This document shows positions 22,661-61,902 of a stretch of 64,000 nt of DNA, one piece after another; positions within the stretch are counted from its first letter, which is position 1, and each line of letters begins with the position of its first letter. Origin of the DNA: Dehalococcoidia bacterium (GTDB lineage Bacteria; Chloroflexota; Dehalococcoidia; Lucifugimonadales; UBA3495); contig CBDBDE010000002.1 in the NCBI GenBank assembly GCA_965203675.1, forward strand, positions 1,151,028 to 1,215,027, read 5' to 3'. A program made the translations under genes and the position numbers. The notes under the pieces were generated by a model. It was given only the letters and a program-made list of their open reading frames with translations, was not told the DNA's origin and searched no databases.

Positions 22661-22700
22661 GTGGTTACCCGGTTGGACTTGTGGTTACCCGGTTGGACAA
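22661..22700 (+). repeat. Perfect 19-of-20 bp tandem direct duplication just upstream of the GIY-YIG start
   Basis: TGTGGTTACCCGGTTGGAC(T) followed by TGTGGTTACCCGGTTGGAC(A). It ends 11 nt before ATG 22711. Confidence 0.9.
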
Positions 22701-22710
22701 AAGGACCCTG

Positions 22711-23001: not shown

Positions 23002-23004
23002 GGG

Positions 23005-23475: not shown

Positions 23476-23480
23476 GTTGG

Positions 23481-37732: not shown

Positions 37733-39370
37733 ATGCCGCTGATGACCGGTGGACAGACTATTGCCGAATCGTTGAAGGCCCAGGATGTTGACACCATATT
37801 CGGGATTATTTCCGTTCATACCCTGGACCTCTTTGATGCCCTGTTCGACAACCAGGACTCGCTCCGGTTCATCGGCGGGCGGCTGGAACTGGGCTGCGGG
37901 TACATGGCGGACGGCTATTCCCGGGCCACGGGAAAGCCGGGAGTGCTGCTGACCAGCACCGGCCCCGGGGCGGCCGATTCCATGGGCGCCATGGGGGAGG
38001 CCTACTTCTCCAGCTCGTCGATCCTACAGGTAACCACCAACGTTGAGCGGGAGTTCGTGGGCAGCAACAAGCTGGCTACCCACGAGACTAAGGACCAGCT
38101 GGGCATGTTCCGCGCCGTCACCGACTGGAATGCGATGATCGGCGAGGTTGAGGCCATCCCGGACCATTTCGTGGAAGCCTTCCGCCGCTTCCAGGAGCGC
38201 CGTCCCCGGCCCATCGAGCTGGAAGTGCCCACCGACATGCTGGGAGAGAGGGCCGAGGTGGAGATCCTGCGCCCCCGGGAGCCGGACATCCCTCAGGGTG
38301 ATCCCGGGATGGTGGAACAGGCGCTCCAGGTCATGCTCGACGCGAAACGCCCGGTCATCGTCGTGGGCGAGGAAGTTCAGTCCCAGGGCGGGGCGGCGGA
38401 AGTCATCGAACTGGCCGAAAAGCTGGGAGCGGCGGTGGTCACCACGGACGGGGCCAAGGGGGCCTTCCCGGAAAGCCATCCTCTGTCCCTGGGGCCCGCG
38501 CTGGGCCGACGCATCTGGGGGGAGAATCCGGCCCAGGACTGGCTGGGTTCGTGTGACGCCGCGCTGGTCCTCGGTTCGGCCCTAGCCTACCGCTCCACTG
38601 TCGGCGTGGACCTGAAGCTGCCGGAAAAGCTGGTCCACGTCCTGCTGGACGAGGAATACATCGGCAAGAACTATCCGGCGGCGGTTGCCATCACGGCCAA
38701 TTCCCGGGCCGTCGTCGCCCAACTGCTGCAGGGTATCGGGGGCCGGGACGTGGAAAGCTCGGCGGAGTACCGGCAGGAAGTTTCCGCTCTGAAACAGCAG
38801 CAATACCAGGCCCTCCAGGATACGTGGGGGAATGAACTGCGGGCCTTTGAGGCCATCCGCGCGGCCACACCCGACGACACCATTTTCACTTTGGACGCAA
38901 CCGTCCCGGCCAGCCGCGCGGCCCGCTGCCTGACCATCGACCAGCCCCGCCAGTTCATGTATCCCTGGGGTTGGGCCGGCTTGGGGTTTGGATTCCCCTC
39001 CGCACTGGGCGCCAAGGTTGGCAAACCCGAGTGCCCGGTGGTGTGCATCACGGGCGACGGCGGGTTCCAGTACAACGCCCAGGAATTGGGGACCGCCGTC
39101 CAGTACGGCATCAACCCGGTAATAGTCATTTTCAACGACAACGCTTGGGGAGTCCTCAAGGGATACCAAAGCGCCCGCTTCAGCGACCGCCTAATGGGCA
39201 CAGACCTGGTAAACCCGGACTTCATCAAGCTCTTCGACTCCTACGGCATCCCCGGCACCCGAGTCTCCACGGTAGACGGTCTGTCAAAGGCCCTGGAGCA
39301 GGCGGTGGGCGCCGACCGGGTGCAATTGATAGAGGTGGAGATTCCCAATGGGTTCGGGGCGCTGGTCTAG
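37733..39370 (+). CDS. Thiamine diphosphate-dependent enzyme, paralogue B
   Basis: ELGCGYMADGYSR, GPGAADS, ThDP motif GDGGFQYNAQELGTAVQYGINPVIVIFNDNAWG. Confidence 0.85.
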   Translation: MPLMTGGQTIAESLKAQDVDTIFGIISVHTLDLFDALFDNQDSLRFIGGRLELGCGYMADGYSRATGKPGVLLTSTGPGAADSMGAMGEAYFSSSSILQVTTNVEREFVGSNKLATHETKDQLGMFRAVTDWNAMIGEVEAIPDHFVEAFRRFQERRPRPIELEVPTDMLGERAEVEILRPREPDIPQGDPGMVEQALQVMLDAKRPVIVVGEEVQSQGGAAEVIELAEKLGAAVVTTDGAKGAFPESHPLSLGPALGRRIWGENPAQDWLGSCDAALVLGSALAYRSTVGVDLKLPEKLVHVLLDEEYIGKNYPAAVAITANSRAVVAQLLQGIGGRDVESSAEYRQEVSALKQQQYQALQDTWGNELRAFEAIRAATPDDTIFTLDATVPASRAARCLTIDQPRQFMYPWGWAGLGFGFPSALGAKVGKPECPVVCITGDGGFQYNAQELGTAVQYGINPVIVIFNDNAWGVLKGYQSARFSDRLMGTDLVNPDFIKLFDSYGIPGTRVSTVDGLSKALEQAVGADRVQLIEVEIPNGFGALV

Positions 39371-46123: not shown

Positions 46124-48112
46124 TTAGTCGTCTGCCGGTTGGGGCTGCCTGGCTCCGGCGGACAGGTAGTCAAATCGCTCTTGGGCGTGTTTCGTGACCG
46201 TTGCCAGGTCATCCGAGAGCAGGAAGCCCTGGACCGCCAGGCCGGAGGCGGCCTCCTTGACCTGCGCCAGGTAGGCGTCCCTGGAATCGTAGCGTTCTTC
46301 AATGGATGGACGGGGGTCCTGCCTGGTTTCCCGCTCTTCCCTGGTCACGGCAAAGGGGATGGTCGCGCCGGTTGTTCCGATGACCTGTCCCTCCGCTCCG
46401 ACCTCCGGGTGCCGGAGGTTCCAGCCGGCGTTGGTGGCGAGGGGCACTGAAATGTCCGGCAGCCTAATTCCGGCCAGCTCGTTTCCGTCGGCGTCCACCG
46501 CCGGAGCCAGGATAGGGTAGGGGCTGCCGATGCCGGCCGGCAGGTTTTCCGGCGAGCCTGCTGCGGGGTCGAAATGGAGCCGCGAGAAGCGCTTCAAATG
46601 GACCGGGAAGTTGACTCCCGGGATGGCGCGGAAGGCAGGGGCCACCGCTTCCGGGGCGACCAGCGTTCCGTCGGACAGCCGGGGGTGGCAACTGGGAGGC
46701 GGAGCGACTCCGGAGCGGACCCAGGCGTCGAGGTTAGCCACGGACGCCCTCAGGACGGGGCGGTAATCCACCCAGTTGAAGGGCTGCTGTCCCCGGGTCT
46801 CCCCGGGGCCTTCGCCGCCGGCCAGCGGGAAGCTCCCAGATGCGTGTTGGGTTCCCGCATAGTAGTAGATGCGGATGTCATCCGATGGTTCGATGTCCCT
46901 GGCGGCGGTGACATCCGTGTGGATCAGGGACAGGTGCGCCCACCAGTACTCGGAGGCGGAGTTCATCAGGAAAACCCTGGGCACGCCGCCCCTGGCCCGC
47001 TGGCGGTCCAGGAGCCCCTCGGTGGCGCCCAGTTCCGCATCGGTTTCGGGGGTGTCGGTGAAGGGAAACAGGTTGCTCATGCTGCGGCGGTGGGCCGTGG
47101 AAGGCTGGGCAAACCGCTGGTTGAACTCGCCACGCCGGGCGCCCGCCACATGGGCGATGACCCCGTCGAATACCTTCCTGCCTCCCTCGTCCAGGTTGAG
47201 CCCCAGGTACAGCAGGTGCCGCAGCAACCGCCCGCTCTGGGACTGGCCGAATCCCAGGGCGAGGTCCACCTCGCCCGCGCAAGGGTTGCCCGCCTCCGTG
47301 GACCCGTACCTCAAGAAGGAAATAAAGTCCCGGGTGGCCAGCAGTCCCAAGCCCGCGATGGGGGTGTGGCTGGTGGAGAAGGTTACATCGTAGATACGGC
47401 CGGGTTGGAAACCGGACTCCAGGTGAATGTGGGCCGGGTCCGGGACCCGCCGCCCAGCTTCGACCCGGGCAAAATGCCACTGGTCGCGAGGCAGCGGGCG
47501 TGGTTCCCCTTCCTCGGAATCCCGGACGGTTAGGGTGGCCTCCCAGTCCTCCAGGTGGTTGGTTGGATAGGGCCGGTGCCCCCGCTCGGACAGCATCTGG
47601 ACGTCGGATGCAACGGAGGGCTGGAAGGTCACGGCCATCCTGCCGGAGACCGGTCCGTCCTCGCGCACGGCCTGCGGAACGTCTATCCCCAACAGACCGG
47701 GCACGTCCGGGACGTCGTGCTGCCAACCGCACCAGGCAACGGTGTAGCCCCGCCGCATCAGGAACCCGTTCCCCGGGTCCGGGGGTTCCGTCGGGGCTCC
47801 GTCATCCGGCGCGTCGTTAATCAGCTTGAACGCCCGCCCTCGTCCCCGGTTCACCACATCCAGGAAGACCGTGCGGCATCCCCGGCCTGTTTCCGCAGGA
47901 CGCAAAATACGGAAGGGCGCTGAAAAACAGACCATCCCCGCATCATTTCTCGGCGCCAGTTCGATGTCGGCAATCAGGCTGTTGTCGGGATGGTCTCGGT
48001 CCACGGAGAAGAACGCCGTACCCTCGATGAGCTCGTAGGTACCGGCGTCGCCGAAGGACTTCCCGCCCCAGTAGGGCTGGCGGCTGTGGACTTCTATCCT
48101 GGATACTCCCAT
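46124..48112 (-). CDS. Large hypothetical protein, probably alpha/beta-hydrolase-domain family (662 aa)
   Basis: GFGQSQSGRLLRHLLYLG looks like a nucleophile-elbow segment. The N-terminal pattern SFGDAGTYELIEG...NRGRG recalls uncharacterised alpha/beta-hydrolase-domain proteins. This assignment is from memory only. Confidence 0.45.
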   Translation of the reverse strand: MGVSRIEVHSRQPYWGGKSFGDAGTYELIEGTAFFSVDRDHPDNSLIADIELAPRNDAGMVCFSAPFRILRPAETGRGCRTVFLDVVNRGRGRAFKLINDAPDDGAPTEPPDPGNGFLMRRGYTVAWCGWQHDVPDVPGLLGIDVPQAVREDGPVSGRMAVTFQPSVASDVQMLSERGHRPYPTNHLEDWEATLTVRDSEEGEPRPLPRDQWHFARVEAGRRVPDPAHIHLESGFQPGRIYDVTFSTSHTPIAGLGLLATRDFISFLRYGSTEAGNPCAGEVDLALGFGQSQSGRLLRHLLYLGLNLDEGGRKVFDGVIAHVAGARRGEFNQRFAQPSTAHRRSMSNLFPFTDTPETDAELGATEGLLDRQRARGGVPRVFLMNSASEYWWAHLSLIHTDVTAARDIEPSDDIRIYYYAGTQHASGSFPLAGGEGPGETRGQQPFNWVDYRPVLRASVANLDAWVRSGVAPPPSCHPRLSDGTLVAPEAVAPAFRAIPGVNFPVHLKRFSRLHFDPAAGSPENLPAGIGSPYPILAPAVDADGNELAGIRLPDISVPLATNAGWNLRHPEVGAEGQVIGTTGATIPFAVTREERETRQDPRPSIEERYDSRDAYLAQVKEAASGLAVQGFLLSDDLATVTKHAQERFDYLSAGARQPQPADD

Positions 48113-48185: not shown

Positions 48186-51100
48186 CTAGAAAACCGTGCT
48201 GGTATCCACGTCCAGGTCCGTTGGAGCGGCCTCGCCGGTGAAGTCCTGCCACCACTCCTCGAACCCATCCAGCCCCATCTTGTCCCGCAGCCGGGCCAAG
48301 TGCGCCTTGACCTGGACCACCATGGGAAGGTTGTAGTCCATGGCCAACTGGTAGGTCTTGGCGACCCATTCCAGGGCCCCCGGAATATCCTCCTGTTCCT
48401 CGGCGACCATTCCCAGCTGGCCGTAGGTGCGGGCCGCGCGAAGCAGGTCACCCAGCTCCTCGAAAATCTCCCGGGCCTGGTGGTACCACCTGGCGGCGTC
48501 CTCGTACCGCTTCTGTTCGTGGAACAGCACTCCAAGCTGACGGCACTCGTCTCCCACCGCCCGCCGGTTGCCCACCATTTCCCACTGGTTCATCGCCGCG
48601 ACGTACCACTCCTCGGCCTCGTCGTAGATGATGCCCCGGTTCTGCTGGAGCAGGCCGAGGTGGTGGAACTCCACCGCCATCTGGGCCTCCATACCCAGGC
48701 GGTCCGCCAGGTTCAACGCCTGTTCGTAGTAGTCGATGGCCTCGTCGAACAGGTACTGGGAGTGGCACACCGTTCCCAGCTCGTGGAAAATCAGGACCGC
48801 CGTTTCCTCGTCGCGCTGTTCCTCGACGATGGCCCGGGCCCGCTGGTACCAGCTGTCCGCCTCCTGGTACTCGAACCTGAGATGGGACACGGCCCCCAGG
48901 GCCCGGTAGTCCTTGACCATCTCCTCCTCGTCGGGAAGCCGCTGGTGGATATCCAGGGCCTTCTGATACAGCTCCTTGGCCTCGGTGTAGTAGCGCTGGT
49001 GCTGCTTGACCTGTCCCAAGGCGAAGTAATCGTCGGCCACGGAGGCCTGGTCCTCCCCGTTTTCGATAATTCCCAGGGACTGTTCGAACCATCCGGCCGC
49101 CTCGTCCAGCCGGAACCTGCGGAGGGCAATCTGGCCGAATTGGTGGGATACTGCCGCCACCCTGGGATCCTGGGCGCTTCCTTCCAGGTTGGAGAGATAC
49201 TCGTATAGCTGGCGGTTAAGGTCCTCGGCGTACTCCAGGTCTCCCACGTCCACCGACTCGCTGGCTTCCGTGCCCAGCAGGTAGGTCCAGAACTCCTCCG
49301 CACCGTTGGATGCTGCGTCCTCCGCCGTCACGCCGACGACTTCCAGCAGCTGCCGCCGCAACCGCCGCAGCTCCGCGAACCGCTTCTGCATCCGGTAGAC
49401 CTGGGCCAGGGGCTGGACCAGCAGCTGGGCGTTGTCCCAATGACGGGCCTCGAGGGCCAGGCCGAGAGCCTGGGTCAGGTTGCCCTCCTCGGCGAGGATT
49501 GCCGTGACGCCCGCATCCTGGTTTTCGTAGAGGGACTCCATGAAGTAGTCTGCCGTGTCCGCGTAAACCCGCACGTACTCCTGTTCCAGGTCGCCCAGCC
49601 GGGCCGTTGCCACCTGCTGTCCCAGCTTCCGCCCGTAGAACCAGGGCAGCGCGGGATGAATCTGGTACACGCTGGGAGAAACCCCTTCCAGGAAGCCATC
49701 GGCCAGCCCGGTCCGCAGCAGCGTCCGCGTCGCCCCCCAACCCAGTTCCTCGCCCATGGCTCCCTTGTACCCGGCTTCGCCGGTCATGTGGTTCACAATG
49801 TCCATCATCACCCGGCGCTGGAACAGGGCAAGGAAGGGGAGGTGGGTGCGGCTGCGGCGGGACATCTTTCCCCAGGAAAATTCCATCGCCGCCGTGAGCG
49901 ACGGCAGCCTGCCTTCCTCCAGGGCCGATTCGGGAAGGCTCTCCAGCGTCCGCTGGAGCTCGGCCAGCAGAGCGGTAGCCGGAACGTCCTTCAACCGGGG
50001 CAGCGCGATTTTCATTGCCAGCGGGTTGCCTTCGACGAAGTCGATGACATCCACCACCTCCGGGGACAACCGCCCCGGCTCAACGCCGGCCTGGGAAAGT
50101 ATCGCGGCGGCCAGCTCCCGGCGGTCACCGCCCTGCAGGCCGGGCAGGGTCATCGTTTGATGGGGGACGGACAGCCAGCCCTCCCCATCCCGCCGGGTAG
50201 CCAGCAGGACCCAGCTCTGTCCATCACCGGTTACGCCGGCGATGAATTCGTTGAGCCCGCTCAGTTCCTCCGGCTCCAGCAGCCCGGGCGACCCCGACGG
50301 AAAACCCGCCGCGTTCTCCACGTTGTCCCAGATGAGCAGGGAAGGATGCTGCTGCAGGTACTCCACCACCCACTGCCGCTGCTGGTCCAGGCTCAAATCG
50401 GGAAACTCCAGACCCGCCACACTGGTCCCGATTTCGTGGACGATCCGCTCCAGCCCCGACGGGTGGGACGCCTCGAAGGTCGTGTAGAACACCCCGCCAG
50501 GCCGCTGTTTCCTGCCAATCCTCTGGAACCAGCGGGCCAGGCCCAGGCACAGCTCCGTCTTGCCTCCTCCGGTGGGACCGGTCAGCGCCACCGTGGGCGA
50601 CTCGGTGAACATCCGCTCCAGCCGGTGCAGCTCTCCCTGCCGGCCCACCATGCCGAAGGCTCCGGCGGCGGGCAACTGCATCTCTACGTTCACGTCCTGC
50701 TGCTGGGGCTGGAGCATCGGCGGCGCCAACGGATCGGGCGCTTCCCCTTCGATAGCCCTGGGGGAATACTCCCGGGACTGGAAGGTGACCGGCGCAACCC
50801 AGTCCCACATTACCTGCTTGCCGGACAGAATGACCCGCACCGGCGATTCCATCAGGGCGTTGCGCGCCGTGGCCGCGCTGGCCGCTACATCCATCCCGCC
50901 CGCCAGGGACTGGTAGAACTGGCGGACAAACATTTCCCGGCTGGCCGAGTCCGCCAGTTGATAGGGAAGGCACACCACCACCGGCACTCCGTGTTCCGAC
51001 AGGTCCGAGGCCGCTCCCGCCAGCGTGCCCCAGGATTCCTGGTGGGCGCCTCCGGCCCCGGTGAGGAACGCCACCGGCACCTGGGCCGATTCCAGCGTTT

Positions 51101-51860
51101 TGCCCAACTGGGCTGTCTGCACCGTCTCCGGGCCCGCGCCGGTTTCCAGGACTAATGCCCCGGGCTCGTTTCCTGCCGTGATTCCGTCGAGTTGGACTAC
51201 GTGGTAATGCCGGGGTTTGTTTTCCAGGGCATCGGTCAGCCCCTGGAAACCGGGTGGGCTGACGTATTCCAGCTCGGCCTGCACCTCCAGGCCCTCCAGG
51301 GCAACGGCGGTCTCGGAAGCCAACCCGCCCCGGAAAGTGCTGTTTTCCAGGGACGGACGCGGGGCGATGAGCAGGACGTTGAGCTGGTCCGTTGGCAGGT
51401 CCGGGTCAAATTCACTGGCGGCTCCGGTTGGATTGCGGCGTATGACGCTGGCCATCTGGGTGGCCGGATAGCCCGCCTCCGTCTCGTTCAGCAGTTCCCA
51501 GGGCAGGGTAAGGAACTCCCGCCGGGACGAGACGATTTCCAGGCGGGTTTCCCCTAGGCCGTCCCCCGAAGCCTGGGCGTAGATGCCGGCCGCTTCCGGG
51601 TTGGCGTTGAACGTGGATTCGAACAGCACCCGACCGAGGTTTCTCAGCCCGGTCTCCACCGCCTCCGAACGGGCCTGGCTGGGGCCGAAGGGCTGGTCCG
51701 CGTACTCGCGGAAATACCAGTCAAGCTCCCGATGGTCGGATGGTTCCAGCGGGTTGGAGAATTGCGAAGGAGGGGCTTCGAGGGTGGCATCCGGCTTTCG
51801 GTAGACAACCTGCAACTGGCCGGATTGGGGGAGGTCGTGAATCTCAATCGCTTGGGACAC
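48186..51860 (-). CDS. STAND NTPase: N-terminal CHAT-like domain, central NB-ARC/P-loop module, C-terminal TPR array (1224 aa)
   Basis: CHAT-type LTLPWELL (aa 117-124) and overall CHAT layout. P-loop LTGPTGGGKTEL (aa 426-437). Walker B LLIWDNVE (aa 508-515) and LLATRRD. There are many TPR-like repeats (Y..A....Q...D...) over aa ~850-1190. Confidence 0.75.
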   Translation of the reverse strand: MSQAIEIHDLPQSGQLQVVYRKPDATLEAPPSQFSNPLEPSDHRELDWYFREYADQPFGPSQARSEAVETGLRNLGRVLFESTFNANPEAAGIYAQASGDGLGETRLEIVSSRREFLTLPWELLNETEAGYPATQMASVIRRNPTGAASEFDPDLPTDQLNVLLIAPRPSLENSTFRGGLASETAVALEGLEVQAELEYVSPPGFQGLTDALENKPRHYHVVQLDGITAGNEPGALVLETGAGPETVQTAQLGKTLESAQVPVAFLTGAGGAHQESWGTLAGAASDLSEHGVPVVVCLPYQLADSASREMFVRQFYQSLAGGMDVAASAATARNALMESPVRVILSGKQVMWDWVAPVTFQSREYSPRAIEGEAPDPLAPPMLQPQQQDVNVEMQLPAAGAFGMVGRQGELHRLERMFTESPTVALTGPTGGGKTELCLGLARWFQRIGRKQRPGGVFYTTFEASHPSGLERIVHEIGTSVAGLEFPDLSLDQQRQWVVEYLQQHPSLLIWDNVENAAGFPSGSPGLLEPEELSGLNEFIAGVTGDGQSWVLLATRRDGEGWLSVPHQTMTLPGLQGGDRRELAAAILSQAGVEPGRLSPEVVDVIDFVEGNPLAMKIALPRLKDVPATALLAELQRTLESLPESALEEGRLPSLTAAMEFSWGKMSRRSRTHLPFLALFQRRVMMDIVNHMTGEAGYKGAMGEELGWGATRTLLRTGLADGFLEGVSPSVYQIHPALPWFYGRKLGQQVATARLGDLEQEYVRVYADTADYFMESLYENQDAGVTAILAEEGNLTQALGLALEARHWDNAQLLVQPLAQVYRMQKRFAELRRLRRQLLEVVGVTAEDAASNGAEEFWTYLLGTEASESVDVGDLEYAEDLNRQLYEYLSNLEGSAQDPRVAAVSHQFGQIALRRFRLDEAAGWFEQSLGIIENGEDQASVADDYFALGQVKQHQRYYTEAKELYQKALDIHQRLPDEEEMVKDYRALGAVSHLRFEYQEADSWYQRARAIVEEQRDEETAVLIFHELGTVCHSQYLFDEAIDYYEQALNLADRLGMEAQMAVEFHHLGLLQQNRGIIYDEAEEWYVAAMNQWEMVGNRRAVGDECRQLGVLFHEQKRYEDAARWYHQAREIFEELGDLLRAARTYGQLGMVAEEQEDIPGALEWVAKTYQLAMDYNLPMVVQVKAHLARLRDKMGLDGFEEWWQDFTGEAAPTDLDVDTSTVF

Positions 51861-52149: not shown

Positions 52150-52405
52150 GGGGCTATCGTATGAATGCCAGGTTGTTCAAAGTTCCATCGAACAGCCAAC
52201 ACAACATCGTGGGGAACGAGCTACGGGGATCTGGATTCCCGCCTGCGCGGGAATGACGGGAGAGAGGGTTTGCCCCGGTTACCGCCTTTGAGGGGAGGTT
52301 TGATGGGGCTGTGGATTCCCGCCCCCGCCTACGCGGGTAAGGCTCTGCGCGGGAATGACGGGAGGAGTGGTGAAAGGACCGAGTCAGGCTTGGTGCGATT
52401 ATCTC
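52150..52405 (+). repeat. Composite dispersed element, copy 4 (two A cores, the second with an insertion)
   Basis: Left module GGGCTATCGTATGAATGCCAGGTTGTTCAAAGTTCCATCGAACAGCCAACACAAC. A cores at 52226-52260 and 52306-52353. Right module GGTGAAAGGACCGAGTCAGGCTTGGTGCGATTA. Confidence 0.8.
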
Positions 52406-52421: not shown

Positions 52422-52841
52422 TTGATTGACATAAGCGGAGAAATGCGGGAACTGTTGGACAACGCCCTTGCCGACGGCTGCTGCTGCATCGTGGGCACCG
52501 CCTCGGGCGACGGGAGGCCCCAGATTAGCATGAAGGGCAGCGTCCTGGTATATGATCCCACCACCCTTGCCTACTGGGAACGCGCCCGCCGCTCGGCCAT
52601 GGAAAACGTGACCGACAATCCGCAGGTGGTCGTGTTCTACCGGAACGCGGAACGCCGCATAAACTGGCGGTTCCACGGGACAGCCGAAGTGGTGGAGAGC
52701 GGCCCGGTCCGCGAGGATGTCATGTCCCGCACTGTTCAGGGAGAGCTTGACCGGGACCCGGAACGCACCGGAGCCGCCGTCCTGGTCCACGTCGACCGGG
52801 TCACCGCCCTTTCCGGCGAGGTCCTGCAGGAAAGAGACTAG
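52422..52841 (+). CDS. Pyridoxamine 5'-phosphate oxidase-family (FMN-binding split-barrel) protein
   Basis: CCIVGTASGDGRPQISMKGS...VVFYRN...RFHGTA matches the PNPOx-like pattern. The start is TTG 52422; ATG 52443 is also possible. Confidence 0.65.
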   Translation: MIDISGEMRELLDNALADGCCCIVGTASGDGRPQISMKGSVLVYDPTTLAYWERARRSAMENVTDNPQVVVFYRNAERRINWRFHGTAEVVESGPVREDVMSRTVQGELDRDPERTGAAVLVHVDRVTALSGEVLQERD

Positions 52842-52885: not shown

Positions 52886-53269
52886 ATGGTCAACGGACAC
52901 AGCAACGAAGCGGCCAGGCACACAGCCCAAGCGCACGAGTTCCTCGAAAAGGCGGGTCAGTACCTGGCCGGCGGAGACCTGCACCAGGCATCCGAGAAGG
53001 GCTGGGGAGCGGCCGCCCACATGGCCAAGGCCGTGGCTCTAGTCCAGGGCCGGGAGTACGAACGGCACAGCCACTTCCACCGGGTGATGAACCAGGCCCG
53101 CCGACTGAGCGGCAACGACCGCCTTCCTTTCCTGCACGGGCGGGCGGAGATCCTGCACGTGAACTTCTACGAGCTGACCGGCGACCTAGACCCGGTGACC
53201 ATCGGGGAGGACTTGGCCAGCATGGCAGAACTCCTGGGCGTGCTGGAGCCTCTGACAGCCAAGGCCTGA
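52886..53269 (+). CDS. PaREP1-like / HEPN-fold helical protein (127 aa)
   Basis: FLEKAGQYLAGGDLHQASEKGWGAAAHMAKAVALVQGREYERHSHF resembles the archaeal PaREP1 family signature (ASEK.WGA...K). Confidence 0.5.
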   Translation: MVNGHSNEAARHTAQAHEFLEKAGQYLAGGDLHQASEKGWGAAAHMAKAVALVQGREYERHSHFHRVMNQARRLSGNDRLPFLHGRAEILHVNFYELTGDLDPVTIGEDLASMAELLGVLEPLTAKA

Positions 53270-53294: not shown

Positions 53295-53445
53295 TAAAGC
53301 GTTGCCAGTTTGGTTAAACTGACAATGAACGGTCAACACGATACTGCGGGGAGAGCACGGCGGGGGTCTGGATTCCCGCCTGCGCGGGAATGACGGGGGA
53401 ACGAGTTAAAGGTACCAGTTGGACTTTATGCGATTGCCCTGGGCA
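53295..53445 (+). repeat. Composite dispersed element, copy 5
   Basis: Left module TGCCAGTTTGGTTAAACTGACAATGAACGGTCAACACGAT. A core at 53363-53397. Right module AAAGGTACCAGTTGGACTTTATGCGATTG. Confidence 0.8.
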
Positions 53446-53495: not shown

Positions 53496-55622
53496 CTATT
53501 GGAGGACAGCCAGAGCGTCGGCCACCTTCACTCCCTGACCCTTGGGCATCACCATCAGGGGGTTGATGTCCAGCTCCGACAGCTTGCCTTCCAGGTTGAC
53601 CGCCATCCGGGAGACCCGCACCAGGGTGTCCGCCAGCGCGTCAATGTCCGCTTCCGGGGCGCCCCGGAAGCCCTGCAGCAGCCTGGCTCCCTTGACCTGG
53701 TGGACCATCTCCAGGGCTTCCGTCTTGGTGATGGGGCAGTGCCGCACCGCCACGTCGTTGTAAACTTCCACCATCACTCCACCGGTCCCGAAGAGGACCA
53801 CCGGCCCGAGCTGGGCGTCGTAGTTGATTCCGGCGATGACTTCCACACCCCCGCTGACCATCTCCTGGACCAGCACGCCTTCAACCCTGGCCTGGGGATC
53901 GTACCGGCGCGCCCCTTCCATAATGTCGTTGAAGGCCTCGGTGACCTCCGCCATGTTTTTCAGACCGAGCCGGATACCTCCCGCCTCGGTCTTGTGCAGG
54001 ATGTCGGGGGAGTTGACTTTCAGCGCCACGGGATACCCAATGCGCTGGGCCGCGTCGGCCGCCTCAGCCGCTGATCCGGCAACTTCCTCTTTGGTAACCG
54101 GGATTCCCCACTCGGCAATCAGCTGCTTCCCTTCATACTCCGTTAACGAAGGCCGATCCAGGCCGGTGACCCTTGCCACGGCCGCGTTCTGGTCCCCGTT
54201 CATCGCCGGGGCGTCGCCGAATCCATTGGCGTTCCGTCCCTCCAGCCACTCGTGGTAGTCGAGCAGGGACTTGAGACCCATCGCCAGCTTGTCCGGCACG
54301 TAGAAGATGGGTATCCCGGCTTCCTTCAGTTTGGGCAGCCCCGCGGTGGCTCCCCGGGTACCCGTCCAGAGAAAGGCCACGCCCTTATCGCTGGCGTCCC
54401 GCTGGGCAATGACCTGCTCCGCCTGGGCGTCCGCTCCCGCGCTGGCCACCACCAGGTTGCCCACCGTCGGCTCGGAAATCAGGAAGTCCATGATCTCGGG
54501 GAAGGACTCGCTGTTGGCAAACCCGGTCACGTCGGAGGGATTCGCAGCCCAGCCGAACCCCTTCAGCACCCCGTTGATTCCGTCCCGGGCCCGGTCCGTC
54601 AGCAGCGGCAGGTCCAGTCCCGCCTGTCCGCACATGTCCGCCGTAAGCGAGCTGATGCCGCCGGAGTGGGAGACCACCGCCACTCCCTTCTGGCTGGGCC
54701 TGGGAAGGTTGGCCAGTAGGTGAGAGACCTCCAGCAGCTCGTCGTAGTCCTGGACCCGGGTCACGCCGTATTGGGCGAAAATCTCGTCGTATACCGCATC
54801 CGATCCGGTCAGCGCCGCCGTGTGTGACCGCGCCGCCCGCGCTCCCAGGTCGGACCTGCCGATCTTGATCAGGACAATCGGTTTCCCCCGTTCCGCCGCC
54901 AGCCTGGCGACCTCGGTGAACTTGCGGGCGTCCTTGAATCCCTCCACGAAACCCGCGATTACCTTGACCCCGTCGTCGTCCAGCAGGTAACGGGCGAAGT
55001 CGCAGAAGTCCAGGTCCGCCTCGTTGCCGGTGGAGATGATGTGGCTCAGTCCAATGCCTTCCTCCACCGCCCGGGTCAGGAAGGGGCCGAAGGCGGATGC
55101 CCCGCTCTGGCAGATGAGGCCCACCGGGCCGGTGAGTCCATCCGAACCGCGGGAGGAGGAGCTGGCCCAGATGTTGTCCCGCACGTTGGCCAGCCCCAGG
55201 CAGTTGGGGCCGCTGCACCGCAGCCCTGACTCCCGGGCAAAGCGGCTCAACTCGCCCTGCAGGTCGCTCCGGTCATCCTCGCCACGCTCTGAAAACCCCG
55301 CCGATATGATGACGGCGGACCCTGCCCCTTTCGCGTGGCTCTCCTTCAGGACGTCCAGCACCCGGTTATAGGGGACGACTATCCCCACCAGGTCCGGGCC
55401 TTCGGGCAGCTCGCTGACGCTGGGGTAGGCCTTGACTCCCATGATCTCGTCGTAGTTGGGGTTGACCGGATAGATTCTCACCCGGTCCTGGCACGACTGG
55501 AGCATCGCGTTGAGGAACCGTCCGCCGTACTGCATCCTGGGCGTCGCGCCCACGATGGCCACCGACTCAGGGTTCAACATCTTGTGGATCGAGGCGAGTT
55601 GACTGTCACTCCAGGTGGCCAT
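53496..55622 (-). CDS. ADP-forming acyl-CoA synthetase (CoA-binding + ligase-CoA + ATP-grasp domains)
   Basis: PESVAIVGAT, GPNCLGL, SQSGA and HTAALTG (phosphohistidine loop), followed by an ATP-grasp region (GYPVALKVNSPDILHKTEAGGI). ATG 55622 was chosen. Confidence 0.8.
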   Translation of the reverse strand: MATWSDSQLASIHKMLNPESVAIVGATPRMQYGGRFLNAMLQSCQDRVRIYPVNPNYDEIMGVKAYPSVSELPEGPDLVGIVVPYNRVLDVLKESHAKGAGSAVIISAGFSERGEDDRSDLQGELSRFARESGLRCSGPNCLGLANVRDNIWASSSSRGSDGLTGPVGLICQSGASAFGPFLTRAVEEGIGLSHIISTGNEADLDFCDFARYLLDDDGVKVIAGFVEGFKDARKFTEVARLAAERGKPIVLIKIGRSDLGARAARSHTAALTGSDAVYDEIFAQYGVTRVQDYDELLEVSHLLANLPRPSQKGVAVVSHSGGISSLTADMCGQAGLDLPLLTDRARDGINGVLKGFGWAANPSDVTGFANSESFPEIMDFLISEPTVGNLVVASAGADAQAEQVIAQRDASDKGVAFLWTGTRGATAGLPKLKEAGIPIFYVPDKLAMGLKSLLDYHEWLEGRNANGFGDAPAMNGDQNAAVARVTGLDRPSLTEYEGKQLIAEWGIPVTKEEVAGSAAEAADAAQRIGYPVALKVNSPDILHKTEAGGIRLGLKNMAEVTEAFNDIMEGARRYDPQARVEGVLVQEMVSGGVEVIAGINYDAQLGPVVLFGTGGVMVEVYNDVAVRHCPITKTEALEMVHQVKGARLLQGFRGAPEADIDALADTLVRVSRMAVNLEGKLSELDINPLMVMPKGQGVKVADALAVLQ

Positions 55623-55666
55623 CGAATCTCTCTCCCATTGCCTGGTTATATTGTTCAGAATGAGGC

Positions 55667-57385
55667 CTAAGTCTCTCCCGCCGTGCGCAGATCGGCCCGC
55701 CAATCGTCGGGACTCGGCTCCCGGTCGACGATAACGTCCACCACTGCGGGCAGCCCGGATGCCTGCGCCTCACGGATGGCGTCGGGAAGGTCCCTGGAGT
55801 CGTTCACCTGGATGCCGAAAGCTCCCATTCCCCGGGCCACGGCCCCGTTGTCCGTCTGGACGAATTCGGAGGCAATCTCCCGGCCGGGCTCCTGGTGGTC
55901 CAGGACCATTCCCAGGGCGCTGTCATTGAAAACCACGCACAGAATCGGCAGCTCGTACTGGACCGCCGTCGACAGGGCGTTAACCGTCATCATGTAGCCG
56001 CCGTCTCCGGTGACGCAGCACACGGTCCGGTCGGGGTACACCAGCTTGAGGGCAACGGCCGCCGGAAGTCCCCAACCCATTCCCGCCGTGCCACCGGGCG
56101 CGAAGAAGGTCTTGGCCTGCTGGGCCTGGTAGAAGTGGGCCATCCAGGTGCGGTTGTTGCCCGCGTCCAGCGAAAAGACCGTATCCGCCGGAAGGGTGTC
56201 CTGGAGCCTGGCAACCAAACGCTGGGGCGTAACCGGAGACGACTCGACTCCCAGGGCGGGGTCGCTGTAGAAGCCCCGGTCGGCCTTCTTTCGAGAGAGG
56301 CTTCCGGCCCATTCCTCCCTTTGAGCTGCCGTATTCGCCGCAACGGTCTCCGAGGCGTCCAGCAGTTGGTCCATGATGGCGCCGGCGTCGCCGGTCAAAC
56401 CCAACTCGATGGGGAAGGTCCATCCCGCGTTCCGGTCGTCGATGTCAATCTGGATAATGTGCTGCTGCCGTGGGTTGAATACGTTGGGGCTTTCCCTGAC
56501 CGTATCCTGCGGGCTGAGCTTGGCCCCGACGATAACCACGGTATCTGCTTCACCGACCACCTGGTTGGCCGCCGCCTGTCCGTAAACCCCGACCATTCCC
56601 AGGGACAAGGGGTGGGTCTCGGAGATTGCGCTCTTTCCTTTGTAGCTGGTGGCTACGGGCGCGTTCCACATTTCGGCCAAACGCTGGAGCTGCTCGTGGG
56701 CTTCGGAGACATGGACCCCATTGCCAGCCACCAGGACCGGCCTTCGGGATGAGGCCAGGATGTCCACGGCCCGCTGGATGTCCTGGGGAGAACTTTGCGG
56801 TTTGGCCGTATTCAGGTAGCCGCCGGTGGGATGGATGAAGGGGGGAGCCTCCAGGTCGACTTCCCCTCCGATGGAGGCGCTCCGCATGACGACGGCGGCC
56901 GGGCCAGGCCGCCCGCTGGTAGCGTGTTTCAAAGCCAACTGAGTCCCCACCACAGCCTCCTTGGGGCTGGTGGCCAGGGTGGTGTACTTCGTCATCGACT
57001 TGAAGATGTTCTGCAGGTCGATGCTGCCGTACTCTCCGGCTCCCGACTGGTTGGCCGGATGCTGCGCCGAACCGCCGTCGGAAGTGTCGGTGAGCACCAG
57101 CATAGGAGAGCTGCTCAACATGGACTCCATGATCCCGAAGGCGGCATTGGAGCCAATGAACAGTCCCTGGCCCATCACCACCGCAGGCTTTCCGCTGGCC
57201 CGGGCATAGGCGTCGGCCATGATTGCCGCCGTCTGCTCGTGGCGGCACAGAATGGCCTTGATCCGGTCTTCCCTCCCGTGCAGGAGGTTGAAAATCTGTC
57301 CGGTCCCGCCCCCTGGAATCCCGAACACGTACTCAACGCCTGCTTCCTCAAGCGACTGGACTATGAGCTCATTGGCCTTGGGCAT
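55667..57385 (-). CDS. Thiamine diphosphate-dependent enzyme, paralogue C
   Basis: RHEQTAAIMADAYAR, ThDP motif GDGGYMMTVNALSTAVQYELPILCVVFNDSALG. It lies 44 nt upstream of the acyl-CoA synthetase gene. Confidence 0.85.
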   Translation of the reverse strand: MPKANELIVQSLEEAGVEYVFGIPGGGTGQIFNLLHGREDRIKAILCRHEQTAAIMADAYARASGKPAVVMGQGLFIGSNAAFGIMESMLSSSPMLVLTDTSDGGSAQHPANQSGAGEYGSIDLQNIFKSMTKYTTLATSPKEAVVGTQLALKHATSGRPGPAAVVMRSASIGGEVDLEAPPFIHPTGGYLNTAKPQSSPQDIQRAVDILASSRRPVLVAGNGVHVSEAHEQLQRLAEMWNAPVATSYKGKSAISETHPLSLGMVGVYGQAAANQVVGEADTVVIVGAKLSPQDTVRESPNVFNPRQQHIIQIDIDDRNAGWTFPIELGLTGDAGAIMDQLLDASETVAANTAAQREEWAGSLSRKKADRGFYSDPALGVESSPVTPQRLVARLQDTLPADTVFSLDAGNNRTWMAHFYQAQQAKTFFAPGGTAGMGWGLPAAVALKLVYPDRTVCCVTGDGGYMMTVNALSTAVQYELPILCVVFNDSALGMVLDHQEPGREIASEFVQTDNGAVARGMGAFGIQVNDSRDLPDAIREAQASGLPAVVDVIVDREPSPDDWRADLRTAGET

Positions 57386-57608: not shown

Positions 57609-58598
57609 TTACATCCGGACTCCCGCTTCCTTGGCTTCCTTGGTTGCCCTCAACCACCGCCACCGCTGAAGCGGATCGCTGACCGCCCGCATCCAGACTC
57701 CAAACAGGTTGAAGGACAGGGCTGTGAGGAAGATAGCCATTCCTGGCACCACCACCACCCACCAGGCGGTGACGATGTACTGCCGTCCCTGGGACAACAT
57801 AAGGCCCCAAGACGATTCGGGGGGCTGAATGCCGAATCCCAGGAAGCTCAGGGTGGACTCGGTCAAGATGTTCCTGGGAACGTCCAACGCAGCCAGCGTC
57901 AGCAAGGGGGTAATCAGGTTGGGCAGGATGTGCCGGCCCACGATTCGGCCGTCGCTGCAACCGATGGCCCGGGCCGCGTCGATGAAGGACTGCTCCCGCA
58001 AGGAGAGGACGACTCCCCGGGTTACGCGGCAGTAGAGCATCCACCGGGCCACTGCGAACACGATGATGATGTTGGTGAAGCTGGGTCCTAATATGAACAG
58101 CACCATCAGTGCCAGCAGCAGCGTCGGCACGGACATGAAAACGTCCACCGCCCGCATTATCACGTCGTCCAGCAGCCCCCGGTAGTAACCGGCCACCAAC
58201 CCCAGGAACACTCCAATGACGCTGGAAATCAGAACGCCCAGCACTCCCACGAGGATGGAGATCCTACCTCCGTAGATCAACCTGCTGAGGTAGTCGCGGC
58301 CAAGGTGGTCGGTGCCCAGCAGGAAGAAGCGGGTGCTTTCGGTGGGAGGGCTCACGGTGCGGTCGACCGCGGTCCCCGAGGTAAGCGGCCCATAGTGCCG
58401 AAGCCGCAGCTGCTGGTCCTGGGGATCATAAGGCGCGACTACCGGCGCGAAGACAGCGGCGAGGATTATTACCAATAGGAAAGCAGCCGACAGGAGCGTT
58501 ATGGTGTCGCTGAAGAAGGCCTGCACCAGTGCGTGGCGCCAGATCGCCACGATCTTGTTCGGGCTTTGCTCCAGGGTGGTTGTTTCTTCTTGAATCAT
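57609..58598 (-). CDS. ABC transporter permease (DppC/OppC-like)
   Basis: N-terminal TM, the EAA-like loop FIDAARAIGCSDGRIVGRHILPN, and six TM helices. Confidence 0.85.
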   Translation of the reverse strand: MIQEETTTLEQSPNKIVAIWRHALVQAFFSDTITLLSAAFLLVIILAAVFAPVVAPYDPQDQQLRLRHYGPLTSGTAVDRTVSPPTESTRFFLLGTDHLGRDYLSRLIYGGRISILVGVLGVLISSVIGVFLGLVAGYYRGLLDDVIMRAVDVFMSVPTLLLALMVLFILGPSFTNIIIVFAVARWMLYCRVTRGVVLSLREQSFIDAARAIGCSDGRIVGRHILPNLITPLLTLAALDVPRNILTESTLSFLGFGIQPPESSWGLMLSQGRQYIVTAWWVVVVPGMAIFLTALSFNLFGVWMRAVSDPLQRWRWLRATKEAKEAGVRM

Positions 58599-58686
58599 GT
58601 TGGGGAGTCCTTATAAACCCGCTTGCCTGATTCTGAATGTTGGTCGAGGGTGAACGCCGGCAGGATTAGGAATAGCTGCGACTCGG

Positions 58687-59616
58687 TTAACTGTAGGAGA
58701 TCCGCGGGTCGAGCCAGGTATAAATCAGGTCAACCGTGAGGTTGATGACCATTACCATCAGCGCGATTACGAACACTGCCGCGGTTACTACCGGCAGGTC
58801 GCGGGCGTTGATGGCGTCAATCAGCAGCTTTCCAATTCCAGGCCATCCGAAAATGATCTCGACCACAGTGGAACCGTTCATAAATCCGGCCAGCTCGTCG
58901 CCCATCAGGGTAACGATGGATATGGCCGCGTTCTTGAGGACGTGTGCGTAAAGGACGGTGTTCTCCGCCAGACCCTTGGCGCGGGCAGTGGCCACGTATT
59001 GCTTGTTGATCTCCTCGATCATGGTCGCCCGGGTAATCTGGGCGTTTCTTCCCAAAACCCGGGGACACAGCGCAATGGCGGGAAGAATCATGAACTTCCA
59101 TCCGCCGGGTCCCAAACCGGCGAATCCCGAGGTTGGCAACAGGTCAAGTTGGACCGATACCACCAGAATAAGCATCAAGGCGAGCCAGAACTCGGGCACG
59201 GAGATTATGGCGAAGGACAGGACGTTTACTATCCGGTCCATGAGCCCTCTGGGCCGTCTTGCGGCCAGCATTCCTAACGGAATGCCTATGGAGCCCAAGG
59301 CCCAGGCCACCACCGCCAGGACTGCCGTGTTCGGCAGCCGGTCCCAAATCATTTCCCTGGCGTCGATGCGGTGGCGGATGGACTTGCCGAAGTCGCCGCG
59401 GGCCAGGTCCCAGTAAAAGTCAGCGAACCTTATATAAAGAGGACGGTCCAGGCCGAACTTGGCCCGCAGGGCGTCGATAGCCTCCTGGGAGGCGTCTTCG
59501 TCGACCAGCAACTGTACCGGGTCTCCGAGAATGTTGATGGCGAAAAACAGCAAAGCCATCAACCCCAGAATAATGAAAATCGAGTGCCCCACCCGACGGA
59601 TCATGTAATTGCGCAC
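58687..59616 (-). CDS. ABC transporter permease (DppB/OppB-like)
   Basis: MIRRVGHSIFIILGLMALLFF, YVATARAKGLAENTVLYAHVLKNA. Confidence 0.85.
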   Translation of the reverse strand: MRNYMIRRVGHSIFIILGLMALLFFAINILGDPVQLLVDEDASQEAIDALRAKFGLDRPLYIRFADFYWDLARGDFGKSIRHRIDAREMIWDRLPNTAVLAVVAWALGSIGIPLGMLAARRPRGLMDRIVNVLSFAIISVPEFWLALMLILVVSVQLDLLPTSGFAGLGPGGWKFMILPAIALCPRVLGRNAQITRATMIEEINKQYVATARAKGLAENTVLYAHVLKNAAISIVTLMGDELAGFMNGSTVVEIIFGWPGIGKLLIDAINARDLPVVTAAVFVIALMVMVINLTVDLIYTWLDPRISYS

Positions 59617-60213
59617 GGAGATTCCCTCGCTAATTGGTTATGGTTTGAAGTCAGCCGTGGCGTGCTGGGCGGTTTTCGAGCGACAGTATAAAGGGCGCAT
59701 CCCGGTTTGCCTATACTTCTGGCCCAGCGGGATAAATTACTGCTGGGCGTTGCCCCTCTTGGGGCACATTCAATAATGAGGCACCATCCGGGGAAATGCC
59801 CGGTGAGTATCTGAACTGGTGGGTATCTGAACTTACTATGCCGCGGGGTTGTAGAAATCCTGACACCGGATTCAGGCTGCGAACCGAAAAATTGTCCTGA
59901 CCGGGAAATTGGCGGGAGTATACACTACCGGATTATGGGCGACAACTTTCTGATACCTGCCGGCACGCTGGGCTGCCCTTTGCCGGGAAGGATAATTATT
60001 ACCCATTATAAACAGGATAGGTTAAAGGACGAGCCAGACTCCACACGGTGGTGCTGGGAAGGTCCGGTCCGGCGTTGACCCTCAACCTCATCTCCCTTAG
60101 AATCGCCCCAATTCCCCCGCCTGTGTTCAGCGGACTTGCGCTGGCCTGACAACGCAGCCAGAGGGGGAAGCAAATGCCGGTTCCCGATCCATTGCCAGAT
60201 CGAAGGAGGCGTT

Positions 60214-61902
60214 ATGCGCGGCGGAGATGCGGTTGTCCATGCGTTGGAAAAAGAAGGGGTACGTTACATAACCGGATTCTCCGGCGGCGGCCTGGCGCCA
60301 TTATGGCCGGCGCTGCGGGAATCGCCCACCATCACCGCTTTCGCCACGCGGCATGAACGGCTGGGCGTGGAAGTTGCGGATGGCTATTCCAGGGCAACGG
60401 GACAGGTCGCGGTGGCCATGACCGGCACCGGCCCGGGGGCGACGAACACTCTCACCGGAATCGCGAGCTGTTTCGCCGACAACGTGCCGGTGCTCCTGCT
60501 CATGGGCCAACATCCGCTTCGGAACCTGGGCAAGGAGTACCAGCAGGAGGTGTCCTCCAGCATCTTTGACTCCCTGGTTAAATGGAAGGGGACGTTCACT
60601 CGGCCCGACGAAATTCCGGGAATCATGCGGCGAGCTTTTACCGCACTGCGCTCCGGCTCGCCCGGGCCAGTCGTCTTGGAGATGCCGCAGGATGTCCTGA
60701 ATGCGGAGGCCGACGACGCCGTTTTGCAATACGAAGCGGTCGGCGAAGGCCGCAAGGCAGCCCCCGACGCCCGGGACATTGAAAGGGCCGCCGATATTCT
60801 CGTGAACGCCAAGCTTCCTATATTAAATGCCGGTGGGGGAGCCCTCGGCGGGGGGGCTGCCGAGGAGGTCCGCGAGCTGGCCGAGCTGCTTTCCATGCCC
60901 GTGGCCACCACCCTGCTGGGCAAGAGCGTGTTTCCCGAGGATCATCCCCTGTCGTTGGGTGGAGGGGTCTACCCCCGCAGCAAGTATGCTTCCGGCCCGG
61001 CGCTGCACATGAACCGCCAGACCGACGCGGTCCTGGCCGTGGGGAACTCCTTCCGGCTGCCCAACGGGACCGACGGACGCCCGATACCCGAAGGCGTCAA
61101 GCTCATCCATATCAACGCGGATGAGAAGGACCTGAACAAGCAATACCAGGCCGATGTGCCGATTCTCGCGGATGCCAAGCTGGCGCTTCGAGCCCTGATT
61201 GACGCGGTGCGGGAAAGGCTGGGCTCCCAAAGCGGGGGCATCAAGGAAGAAGTTGTCGGCGAAATCGCCCGAGCCAAGGCCAAGTGGCTGGGGGAGTGGA
61301 TGCCCATCTTCACCGACGAGTCCAAGCCCACCAACGGCTACCGGGTCGTCCATGATTTGATGCGGGCCGTGGACCCGACACGAACTATCGCGCTTCACGA
61401 CGCTGGGGGTAGCCGGGGTTACATAACCCCCTTCTGGGTCTCCACCATTCCCCATAGCTTCGTGGCCATGGGCGGGATGGCGCCAATGGGATGGTCCCTG
61501 GGAGCCGCCATTGGGGCCAAGCTGGCCCACCCCGACCGTTTGGTTGTCCACCTGTTGGGCGACGCTTCTTTTGGCATGACCGGCATGGAAATCGAGACCG
61601 CCGTCCGCATGAACCTTCCCACCCTGACCGTGGTGATAAACAACGGGGGCATCGGCGGCGGCATGATGGGAATGGACCGGCCGGGCGGCACGCCTCCAAC
61701 CGTTGCCCAACTGGGCGGCAACTTCAGCGAGGTTGCCCGGGGCCTGGGAGCGTACTCGGAGCGGGTGGAGGAGCCAACGGAAATCCTGCCGGCGTTCCAA
61801 AGGGCCATTCGGACAACCGAAGAGGGACAGGCTGCCCTGGTGGAGGTCATGATCAAGCCCATGCGGACGCCCGAACTGCCGGACGACTGGTCGGTGGACT
61901 AG
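60214..61902 (+). CDS. Thiamine diphosphate-dependent enzyme, paralogue D
   Basis: RHERLGVEVADGYSR, GPGATN, ThDP motif GDASFGMTGMEIETAVRMNLPTLTVVINNGG. ATG 60214 lies 5 nt after GAAGGAGG. Confidence 0.85.
   Translation: MRGGDAVVHALEKEGVRYITGFSGGGLAPLWPALRESPTITAFATRHERLGVEVADGYSRATGQVAVAMTGTGPGATNTLTGIASCFADNVPVLLLMGQHPLRNLGKEYQQEVSSSIFDSLVKWKGTFTRPDEIPGIMRRAFTALRSGSPGPVVLEMPQDVLNAEADDAVLQYEAVGEGRKAAPDARDIERAADILVNAKLPILNAGGGALGGGAAEEVRELAELLSMPVATTLLGKSVFPEDHPLSLGGGVYPRSKYASGPALHMNRQTDAVLAVGNSFRLPNGTDGRPIPEGVKLIHINADEKDLNKQYQADVPILADAKLALRALIDAVRERLGSQSGGIKEEVVGEIARAKAKWLGEWMPIFTDESKPTNGYRVVHDLMRAVDPTRTIALHDAGGSRGYITPFWVSTIPHSFVAMGGMAPMGWSLGAAIGAKLAHPDRLVVHLLGDASFGMTGMEIETAVRMNLPTLTVVINNGGIGGGMMGMDRPGGTPPTVAQLGGNFSEVARGLGAYSERVEEPTEILPAFQRAIRTTEEGQAALVEVMIKPMRTPELPDDWSVD

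Follow-up and report, generated by a model that had tools for sequence, protein, structure and literature searches.

CHAT proteases of solved structure (separase, the Craspase TPR-CHAT protein Csx29, SAVED-CHAT, PDB 8tl0, and DdvA, PDB 8rot) retain a His-Cys catalytic dyad, as documented for DdvA, separase and Craspase (PMC11506125); in DdvA the dyad consists of C907 and H862 (PMC11506125). None of them is fused to a STAND NTPase, and the TPRs of separase, Craspase TPR-CHAT and DdvA lie N-terminal to the CHAT domain. A STAND NTPase that carries a protease head is usually taken as an immune or cell-death device. Inactive caspase-like domains have also been described: in vWA-MoxR ternary conflict systems, about 70% of the caspase effectors lack catalytic activity, with peptide-binder or dominant-negative roles proposed for them (Kaur et al. 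2020, PMC7159879), and the bacterial pseudo-orthocaspases are unrelated, conserved dead caspase homologs (Klemencic et al. 2019, PMC6426788). Regulation is a further role proposed for conserved domains of this kind. Here we analyze a gene in a 64,000-nucleotide (nt) stretch of a Dehalococcoidia bacterium (assembly GCA_965203675.1, contig CBDBDE010000002.1, positions 1,151,028 to 1,215,027 of the forward strand; hereafter the window) whose 1224-amino-acid (aa) product is built the opposite way: a CHAT-fold head that has lost both dyad residues, joined to a STAND NTPase, with the TPRs at the C-terminal side (Table 1).

We assign a probability of about 0.55 to the reading that this protein is a lineage-specific, domesticated STAND (NB-ARC-like) switch, which would sense an endogenous ligand and signal non-catalytically through clustered pseudo-CHAT heads. 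Descent from a large family of active CHAT-protease/STAND/TPR proteins, with loss of the dyad in the ancestor of a Dehalococcoidia clade, is the best explanation of the sequence relationships. Active members of that family (P0022, P0026 and P0030, about 1100-1300 aa) resemble the window protein in length and three-module architecture; their N-domains, N-terminal extension included, show ~24-30% identity to it, and both have WDNFE, TSR and GHPLA in the NTPase. The active relatives keep the dyad (YHIVHFDGHG and VLNACQSA), whereas the window clade lacks both residues and carries a near-invariant helical arm of its own. Both the parts of this protein and the notion of an inactive caspase-like domain have precedents; new are the conserved clade of dyad-less CHAT-STAND-TPR proteins, its sensor-biased constraint and its fixed metabolic location. 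A literature search found no paper linking Dehalococcoidia with a CHAT domain, and the source annotation of the relatives reads only "TPR repeat protein."

The CHAT-like/STAND/TPR architecture proposed in a preliminary description of the window, made from the sequence alone, was recovered by Pfam (CHAT and TPR_12), by AlphaFold2 (AF2) models and by Foldseek. For the head, Pfam CHAT (PF12770) matches aa 105-357 over profile positions 25-284 of 289, with 24.3 bits against a curated cutoff of 24.0 (E 2.5e-5). This match, barely above threshold, is backed by an exhaustive search with a profile of the N-domain that covered 1.84 billion representative proteins and returned 11,288 of them at E<=1e-3, of which 492 reached E<=1e-30. 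Lengths of 1100-1300 aa are common among these relatives, which indicates a shared architecture. Word-indexed searches with the N-domain and two profiles gave just 3, 12 and 7 proteins; the depth came from the exhaustive search and the genome scan described below. The AF2 model of aa 1-384, based on a 91-sequence alignment, reached a predicted local distance difference test (pLDDT) of 93.4 and a predicted template modeling score (pTM) of 0.93. In the Protein Data Bank (PDB) it came closest to the protease domain of separase, Craspase TPR-CHAT, SAVED-CHAT and the CHAT domain of DdvA, all at probability 1.00 with E between 1e-8 and 1e-6, and caspases-3 and -9 stood lower in the list; Pfam gave no Peptidase_C14 (p20) match in the protein. 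As modeled, the head retains a CHAT/caspase-type fold. The N-terminal extension, with strands at 3-28 and helices at 40-100 in the model, is common to active CHAT-STAND relatives, most of the listed relatives' matches starting at profile positions 1-45.

The motifs singled out in the preliminary description lie at the residues given there: LPWELL at 119-124, HYHVVQLDGIT at 218-228, VAFLTGAGGAH at 263-273 and FYQSL at 315-319. Almost all relatives whose score against the ortholog N-domain profile is at most 260 bits have YH(I/L)VHFDG-H-G and V(L/V)NA-C-(Q/R)S, where the window protein reads YHVVQLDG-I-T and AFLTG-A-GG. An alignment including 107 dyad-bearing relatives assigns Ile227 to the catalytic His column and Ala269 to the catalytic Cys column. 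The sequence profile also aligns with the solved structures across the dyad motifs, DdvA C907 falling in the Cys column and HFIGHG of SAVED-CHAT on the HFDGHG motif. Because solved CHAT structures align at both motifs, the dyad columns are anchored, and the earlier observation that neither a His nor a Cys occupies them holds.

Both dyad residues are missing in all 27 genomic orthologs. The His column is filled by I, L, V, A, F or W, and the segment around the Cys column contains no Cys anywhere in any aligned ortholog. Position 223, the first and non-catalytic His of H-x3-H, is Q in the window protein and at loci L003-5, L009, L011-13 and L029 and H in the remaining orthologs, which are the majority. 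Of 135 aligned N-domains, 107 have both dyad residues, 23 lack both and five were scored as lacking the His; four of these five are alignment artifacts with the His in an insert, and P0080 lacks the His alone. The 23 dyad-less domains are the window clade plus P0020 (2696 aa), P0053, P0112 and P0117, CHAT-STAND-type proteins that score well below the window clade. On their sequences, these four may represent repeated independent inactivation in the superfamily. The window head differs from the pseudo-orthocaspases, which are p20/Peptidase_C14 domains with Tyr or Ser substitutions (PMC6426788), in being a CHAT domain with Ile and Ala, fused to a STAND NTPase.

Judged from its sequence, the head thus lacks the His-Cys dyad, placed where the two central strands end, that defines a functional CHAT peptidase. 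It could still be a protease if the catalytic residues had been relocated or replaced: the fold is kept, as are several residues of the pocket region, and the window head contains Cys297 as well as His218, His220, His273 and His290. Yet Cys297, His273 and His290 vary among orthologs, His220 is Asp in L022, L025 and L028, the His of position 223 is Gln in the window protein itself, and the ortholog alignments contain no conserved Ser or Cys nucleophile at the end of the beta-strand that bears the Cys in active relatives. Neither a His nor a Cys is among the head positions invariant in 22 diverse orthologs, and there is therefore no sign of a relocated dyad; a cryptic alternative dyad was rejected on this ground, and we consider a head with protease activity highly improbable. 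The positions that are near-invariant in a 133-sequence family alignment and invariant in the dyad-less orthologs are W121-E122, R141, D225-G226, R333, R342, D353-W354 and P357.

Following the head, Walker A (G428PTGGGKT435) and Walker B (L508LIWD512) are conserved in all orthologs; the residue after D512 is N or G (DN/DG), and the second acidic residue is absent. The motifs LLxSRR and G-x-PLA (GLPL-like) are invariant or nearly so. Pfam P-loop families AAA_22, AAA_25 and AAA_16 match aa 405-518, while NB-ARC (PF00931) is unlisted for the protein at E<=1. In sequence searches against the PDB, the whole protein gave TPR matches only (6mfv marginal, at E 0.05), and the NTPase profile gave P-loop matches only (ADR1 at E 0.16). 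Since these PDB sequence searches show just TPR and P-loop, the STAND classification rests on motifs and Foldseek. For the model of aa 385-1224 (pLDDT 93.3), the best match was the TPR-sensor STAND protein PH0952 of Pyrococcus horikoshii (6mfv, E 4e-14), followed by Apaf-1 (3sfz, 1z6t) and Avs3. The order of nucleotide-binding (NBD), helical (HD) and winged-helix (WHD) domains with a GxP motif, then a repeat sensor, is present in the model, and "NB-ARC-like STAND" is a fair label for these motifs and the modeled fold: of the NB-ARC domain claimed earlier, the motifs and the fold stand, and the family profile does not match.

PH0952 and Apaf-1 share the NBD-HD-WHD arrangement with the window protein, and PH0952 also the helical/TPR sensor that follows it, at the marginal sequence similarity given above; Apaf-1 differs in its CARD adaptor and WD40 sensors. 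PH0952 reportedly carries no CHAT-type N-terminal domain. The sensor itself is matched by TPR_12 (E 1.8e-27, about aa 880-1190) and, with 44.8 bits, comes just under the TPR_MalT cutoff of 45; it superposes on the peptide-binding TPRs of LGN/Pins with a template modeling score (TMt) of 0.7-0.8 in Foldseek. NCBIfam gave generic TPR or P-loop matches only, its AfsR model covering the TPR part alone. These weak TPR_MalT and AfsR matches go with a likeness to the MalT, AfsR and LAL regulators, which combine a STAND NTPase with a TPR-like sensor and have a physiological, not immune, role. Those regulators have a DNA-binding domain; the window protein, as had been noted, has none (no helix-turn-helix [HTH] or SARP match in Pfam anywhere in its 1224 aa), and its output module is the pseudo-protease.

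A scan of 185,579 species, each represented by a single genome, gave 27 loci, one per genome, all in metagenome-assembled genomes (MAGs) of Dehalococcoidia (Chloroflexota), several of them complete chromosomes. The nearest ortholog, L003, is 93-97% identical per module, and all 27 copies are intact open reading frames (ORFs) of about 1214-1266 aa, two cut by contig ends. A decaying remnant of a former CHAT-STAND gene might be suspected from the loss of both catalytic residues and from the many database homologs that are short: P0001-P0011 are fragments of 270-755 aa from ENA contigs, the "CHAT-only" ones of 270-470 aa. The two fragments that were traced (P0001 and P0003; loci L001 10001-13610 and L002 10001-13676) are gene calls split by a frameshift on apparently long-read metagenome contigs, with the remainder directly downstream; split fragments of this kind could pass for stand-alone pseudo-CHAT proteins. 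A pseudogene was rejected because all 27 genomic copies are intact and every module has a dN/dS far under 1, and we give this alternative next to no weight. The contigs of P0001 and P0003 are named ctg...l and look like long-read assemblies.

The ratio of nonsynonymous to synonymous substitution rates (dN/dS, Nei-Gojobori; window and L003-L005) was lower in the NTPase (0.04-0.11) and the TPRs (0.04-0.09) than in the head (0.15-0.25); the CHAT core (aa 101-370) alone gave 0.15-0.23 against close relatives, and the TPR array of aa 861-1190 gave 0.04-0.08. Being well below 1 throughout, these ratios indicate that selection maintains every module. Across the more distant orthologs L006-L029, identity to the window protein was 35-51% in the head, 59-74% in the NTPase and 58-82% in the TPRs. 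The same gradient is seen in the positions invariant among the 22 diverse orthologs, which amount to 7% of aa 1-100, 11% of the CHAT core, 23-24% of the NBD and HD/WHD, 31% of the TPRs and 52% of the arm (aa 731-860), the highest value in the protein. The sequences show purifying selection on all three modules, strongest on the arm and TPR sensor and weakest on the dead head. At the level of sequence, this sensor-biased constraint is the opposite of an arms-race receptor with a conserved effector.

Gene order was compared in 29 loci, the 27 from the genome scan plus L001 and L002. The same block recurs in them: a thiamine-diphosphate-dependent (ThDP) enzyme, an ADP-forming acyl-CoA ligase (ACS), a PPOX-class oxidoreductase, the STAND gene, an Abhydrolase_10 (Abh10) protein, in some clades only an F420-type LLM oxidoreductase, and MmgE/PrpD. 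The PPOX gene was detected in 26 of the 29 loci and lies directly upstream of the STAND gene in most, and the synteny persists down to 51% protein identity. We conclude that the gene is inherited vertically and locked into a block of acyl-CoA and organic-acid metabolism. Homologs share both the dyad loss and the neighborhood (27 orthologs and 29 loci, respectively). The gene had been taken for an accessory-type one, and this is not supported: the scan shows it at one locus per genome in a constant metabolic neighborhood across 27 Dehalococcoidia genomes. Single-copy homologs with a fixed housekeeping neighborhood, named in the preliminary description itself as evidence that would count against it, are what we found within the lineage.

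The same observations bear on the proposal that the gene belongs to an undescribed defense system. In its fullest form, this proposal makes the protein a STAND receptor for phage defense or conflict, akin to Avs or bNACHT, in which the dead CHAT head serves as a decoy, a dominant negative or the trigger of a separate effector. Its descent from CHAT-STAND-TPR proteins, whose build is typical of NTP-dependent conflict systems (PMC7159879, PMC13581612), speaks for this, as do the Avs3 match of the aa 385-1224 model and the proposal that inactive enzyme domains act as decoys in such systems (PMC7159879). The inactive caspase effectors of vWA-MoxR systems resemble the window head in having lost the dyad and yet being conserved, although they belong to different families and contexts (PMC7159879), and neither the window nor the 29 loci have vWA or MoxR genes among the neighbors. 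Against defense stand the single locus at a constant position in 27 species-level genomes with metabolic neighbors only, and the slow evolution of the sensor, the most conserved part of the protein. No defense or mobile genes were found around the gene in the loci examined, no relatives in 2.9 million viral contigs, and in PADLOC nothing past a generic TPR model and mad8, a P-loop match of marginal score (E 0.005); the sequence moreover predicts no remaining effector activity. We therefore regard the defense candidacy as distinctly unlikely. A STAND phylogeny of 2026 finds non-defense clades interspersed among defense clades (PMC13581612); this and the frequent inactivation of caspase effectors (PMC7159879) fit a domesticated, non-catalytic STAND switch.

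A narrower form of the preferred reading makes the protein a sensor and regulator devoted to the flanking metabolic cluster. Its arm and TPRs would bind a metabolite of the pathway in the manner of MalT, and its pseudo-CHAT head would control an enzyme by contacting it directly. The core block of ACS, STAND gene, Abh10 and PrpD is kept in all clades despite changing outer flanks; the near-invariant arm, the near-threshold TPR_MalT score and the best structural match, to the TPR-sensor STAND PH0952, point the same way. The protein has no HTH domain, however, the adjacency is not operon-tight, Abh10 is absent in L018, and history alone could account for the conserved gene order. Nothing ties the TPRs to a metabolite, and TPRs of the LGN type bind peptides. 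A specific link to the flanking pathway is plausible; as a complete account of the protein we find it unlikely.

Under the preferred reading of a domesticated switch, and by analogy with described systems, a conserved endogenous ligand would bind the arm/TPR sensor, either a peptide or protein segment, as for LGN-type TPRs, or a metabolite, as for MalT. Binding would relieve autoinhibition, as in PH0952-type STANDs, and nucleotide exchange would drive oligomerization. The pseudo-CHAT heads thus clustered would form a non-catalytic binding or scaffolding platform, on which a partner resembling a substrate may be captured or another protein recruited or inhibited. Rather than phage defense, the likely role is regulation of physiology, which might extend to the adjacent metabolic genes. 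A more specific version, in which an immune-type receptor was domesticated early in a Dehalococcoidia lineage and its dead head controls an enzyme of the adjacent acyl-CoA/organic-acid pathway or recruits an active CHAT paralog by induced proximity, is doubtful, if somewhat less so than the cluster regulator just described.

Several points weigh against the switch. Its proposed ligand, oligomerization and output are argued by analogy with STAND NTPases and pseudo-proteases. With no DNA-binding domain, any regulation must go through proteins. NTP hydrolysis may be slow for want of the second Walker B acidic residue. The conserved adjacency to metabolic genes may be inherited gene order only: Abh10 lies downstream in every locus reaching that far except L018, its spacing from the STAND gene varies from 18 to about 530 nt, and in L018 and L022-L028 insertions leave about 3.2-3.6 kb between the PPOX and STAND genes. 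A core, conserved defense gene is another possible identity, and all carrier genomes are uncultured MAGs.

If the version with enzyme control or paralog recruitment by the dead head is correct, this would be the first STAND regulator that signals via a pseudo-protease and not via DNA binding or an active effector. Under the broader reading of a domesticated switch, the clade is a natural case of a receptor of the conflict type that has become a signaling scaffold built on a pseudo-enzyme, and a counterexample, fixed after dyad loss, to the usual assignment of protease-headed STAND NTPases. For annotation, it cautions that a CHAT-STAND-TPR protein need not mean defense. The near-invariant arm and the fixed metabolic neighborhood offer handles on ligand and partner, with the uncultured carriers as a practical limit.

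Table 1. Features of the pseudo-CHAT/STAND/TPR gene and of the surrounding window (positions in the window)
Feature	Position	Strand	Basis or remark
Whole gene, pseudo-CHAT/STAND NTPase/TPR protein	48186..51860	-	ORF list and translation
aa 1-100, N-terminal beta/helical extension (LEIHDL, WYFxEY, LGRLLFE)	51561..51860	-	AF2 model
aa 101-370, predicted CHAT/caspase-fold core without catalytic dyad (pseudo-protease)	50751..51560	-	Pfam CHAT, Foldseek
Gln223, column of first, non-catalytic His of H-x3-H	51192..51194	-	Ortholog alignment
Ile227, catalytic His column	51180..51182	-	Alignments with dyad-bearing relatives and SAVED-CHAT 8tl0
Ala269, catalytic Cys column	51054..51056	-	Alignments with dyad-bearing relatives and DdvA C907
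aa 401-560, P-loop nucleotide-binding domain	50181..50660	-	Pfam AAA_22, conserved motifs, model and Foldseek (PH0952, Apaf-1)
Walker A, G428-T435	50556-50579	-	Ortholog alignment
Walker B, L508-D512, plus E515	50316-50339	-	Ortholog alignment
aa 561-730, helical and winged-helix domains of STAND module (LLxSRR; G611-x-PLA615, GLPL-like)	49671..50180	-	Invariant columns, secondary structure, Foldseek 6mfv/3sfz/1z6t
aa 731-860, helical arm joining winged helix and TPRs (RVYADTADYF...LAEEGNL...QPLAQVYRMQ)	49281..49670	-	Invariance across 22 orthologs
aa 861-1190, TPR sensor array, about 8-9 repeats	48291..49280	-	Pfam TPR_12, TPR_MalT; Foldseek LGN/Pins
aa 1191-1224, C-terminal tail (GxxxFxxWW...P.DL.VD), partly conserved	48189..48290	-	10/34 positions invariant
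Abhydrolase_10 protein	46124..48112	-	Pfam PF20091; 73 nt downstream of STAND gene, same strand; not shown as partner
PPOX-class (PNPOx_N) small oxidoreductase, divergently transcribed	52422..52841	+	Pfam, NCBIfam
127-aa ORF, archaeal PaREP1/PaREP8 family	52886-53269	+	Pfam E 2.7e-12
ADP-forming acyl-CoA ligase	53496-55703	-	Pfam/NCBIfam; syntenic in 29 loci
ThDP-dependent acetolactate-synthase-like enzyme	55667-57385	-	Pfam/NCBIfam; syntenic in 29 loci
Copies of GGATTCCCGCCTGCGCGGGAATGACGG	22465, 23023, 23182, 24325, 29537, 29684, 34255, 35948, 52233, 53370	+	Span 22465-53396

The STAND gene is a single intact ORF of 1224 codons plus a stop on the reverse strand, with a GTG start and AGGAG 8-9 nt upstream of it; the last five residues of the C-terminal tail have low confidence in the structure model. 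A scan for promoters and terminators around the gene did no better than shuffled sequences. The Abhydrolase_10 neighbor has no relatives in the PDB or NCBIfam, the GQSQSG in its translation could be a nucleophile elbow, and no functional link between it and the STAND gene was found at the locus.

On the other side of the gene, the insertions between PPOX and STAND genes hold three tandem paralogs, once more metabolic genes, resembling HpcH/HpaI aldolase or citryl-CoA lyase in L022 (6660-9668) and L018 (6842-9762). A gap of the same size in L023-L028 was seen from spacing alone, and the window has no HpcH/HpaI genes at the site. Two further large ORFs in the window (37733-39370 and 60136-61902, both +) have a presence pattern in related loci near that of the ThDP-enzyme gene, which suggests, from the pattern alone and with hit positions uncompared, ThDP-enzyme paralogs within 25 kb. 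GC content is 0.57-0.60 at 1-14000 and 58001-60000 and 0.62-0.66 in the rest of the window.

A repeat cluster directly upstream of the STAND gene had been reported; the repeats are real and belong to a dispersed element that is not tied to the gene. The palindromic 27-mer GGATTCCCGCCTGCGCGGGAATGACGG is present 10 times in the window when up to three mismatches are allowed, where none is expected by chance, and looks like a dispersed REP/MITE-like intergenic element. The two copies upstream of the STAND gene sit inside 105-nt repeats (52166-52270 and 53303-53407; 75% identical), which together bracket the PPOX and PaREP1-like genes. A gene-specific role of these upstream repeats was rejected, as they hold just two of the 10 dispersed copies. 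Between the acyl-CoA ligase and PPOX genes, the PaREP1-like ORF is confined to the window and to L003-L005, the loci closest to it; with the bracketing repeats, this suggests a recent insertion. The core of the 27-mer, ATTCCC-N8-GGGAAT, presumably resembles the Neisseria dRS3 repeat. All copies lie on the + strand, a strict bias, and GC skew peaks at 0.17-0.26 at 20001-24000, where four of the copies cluster.

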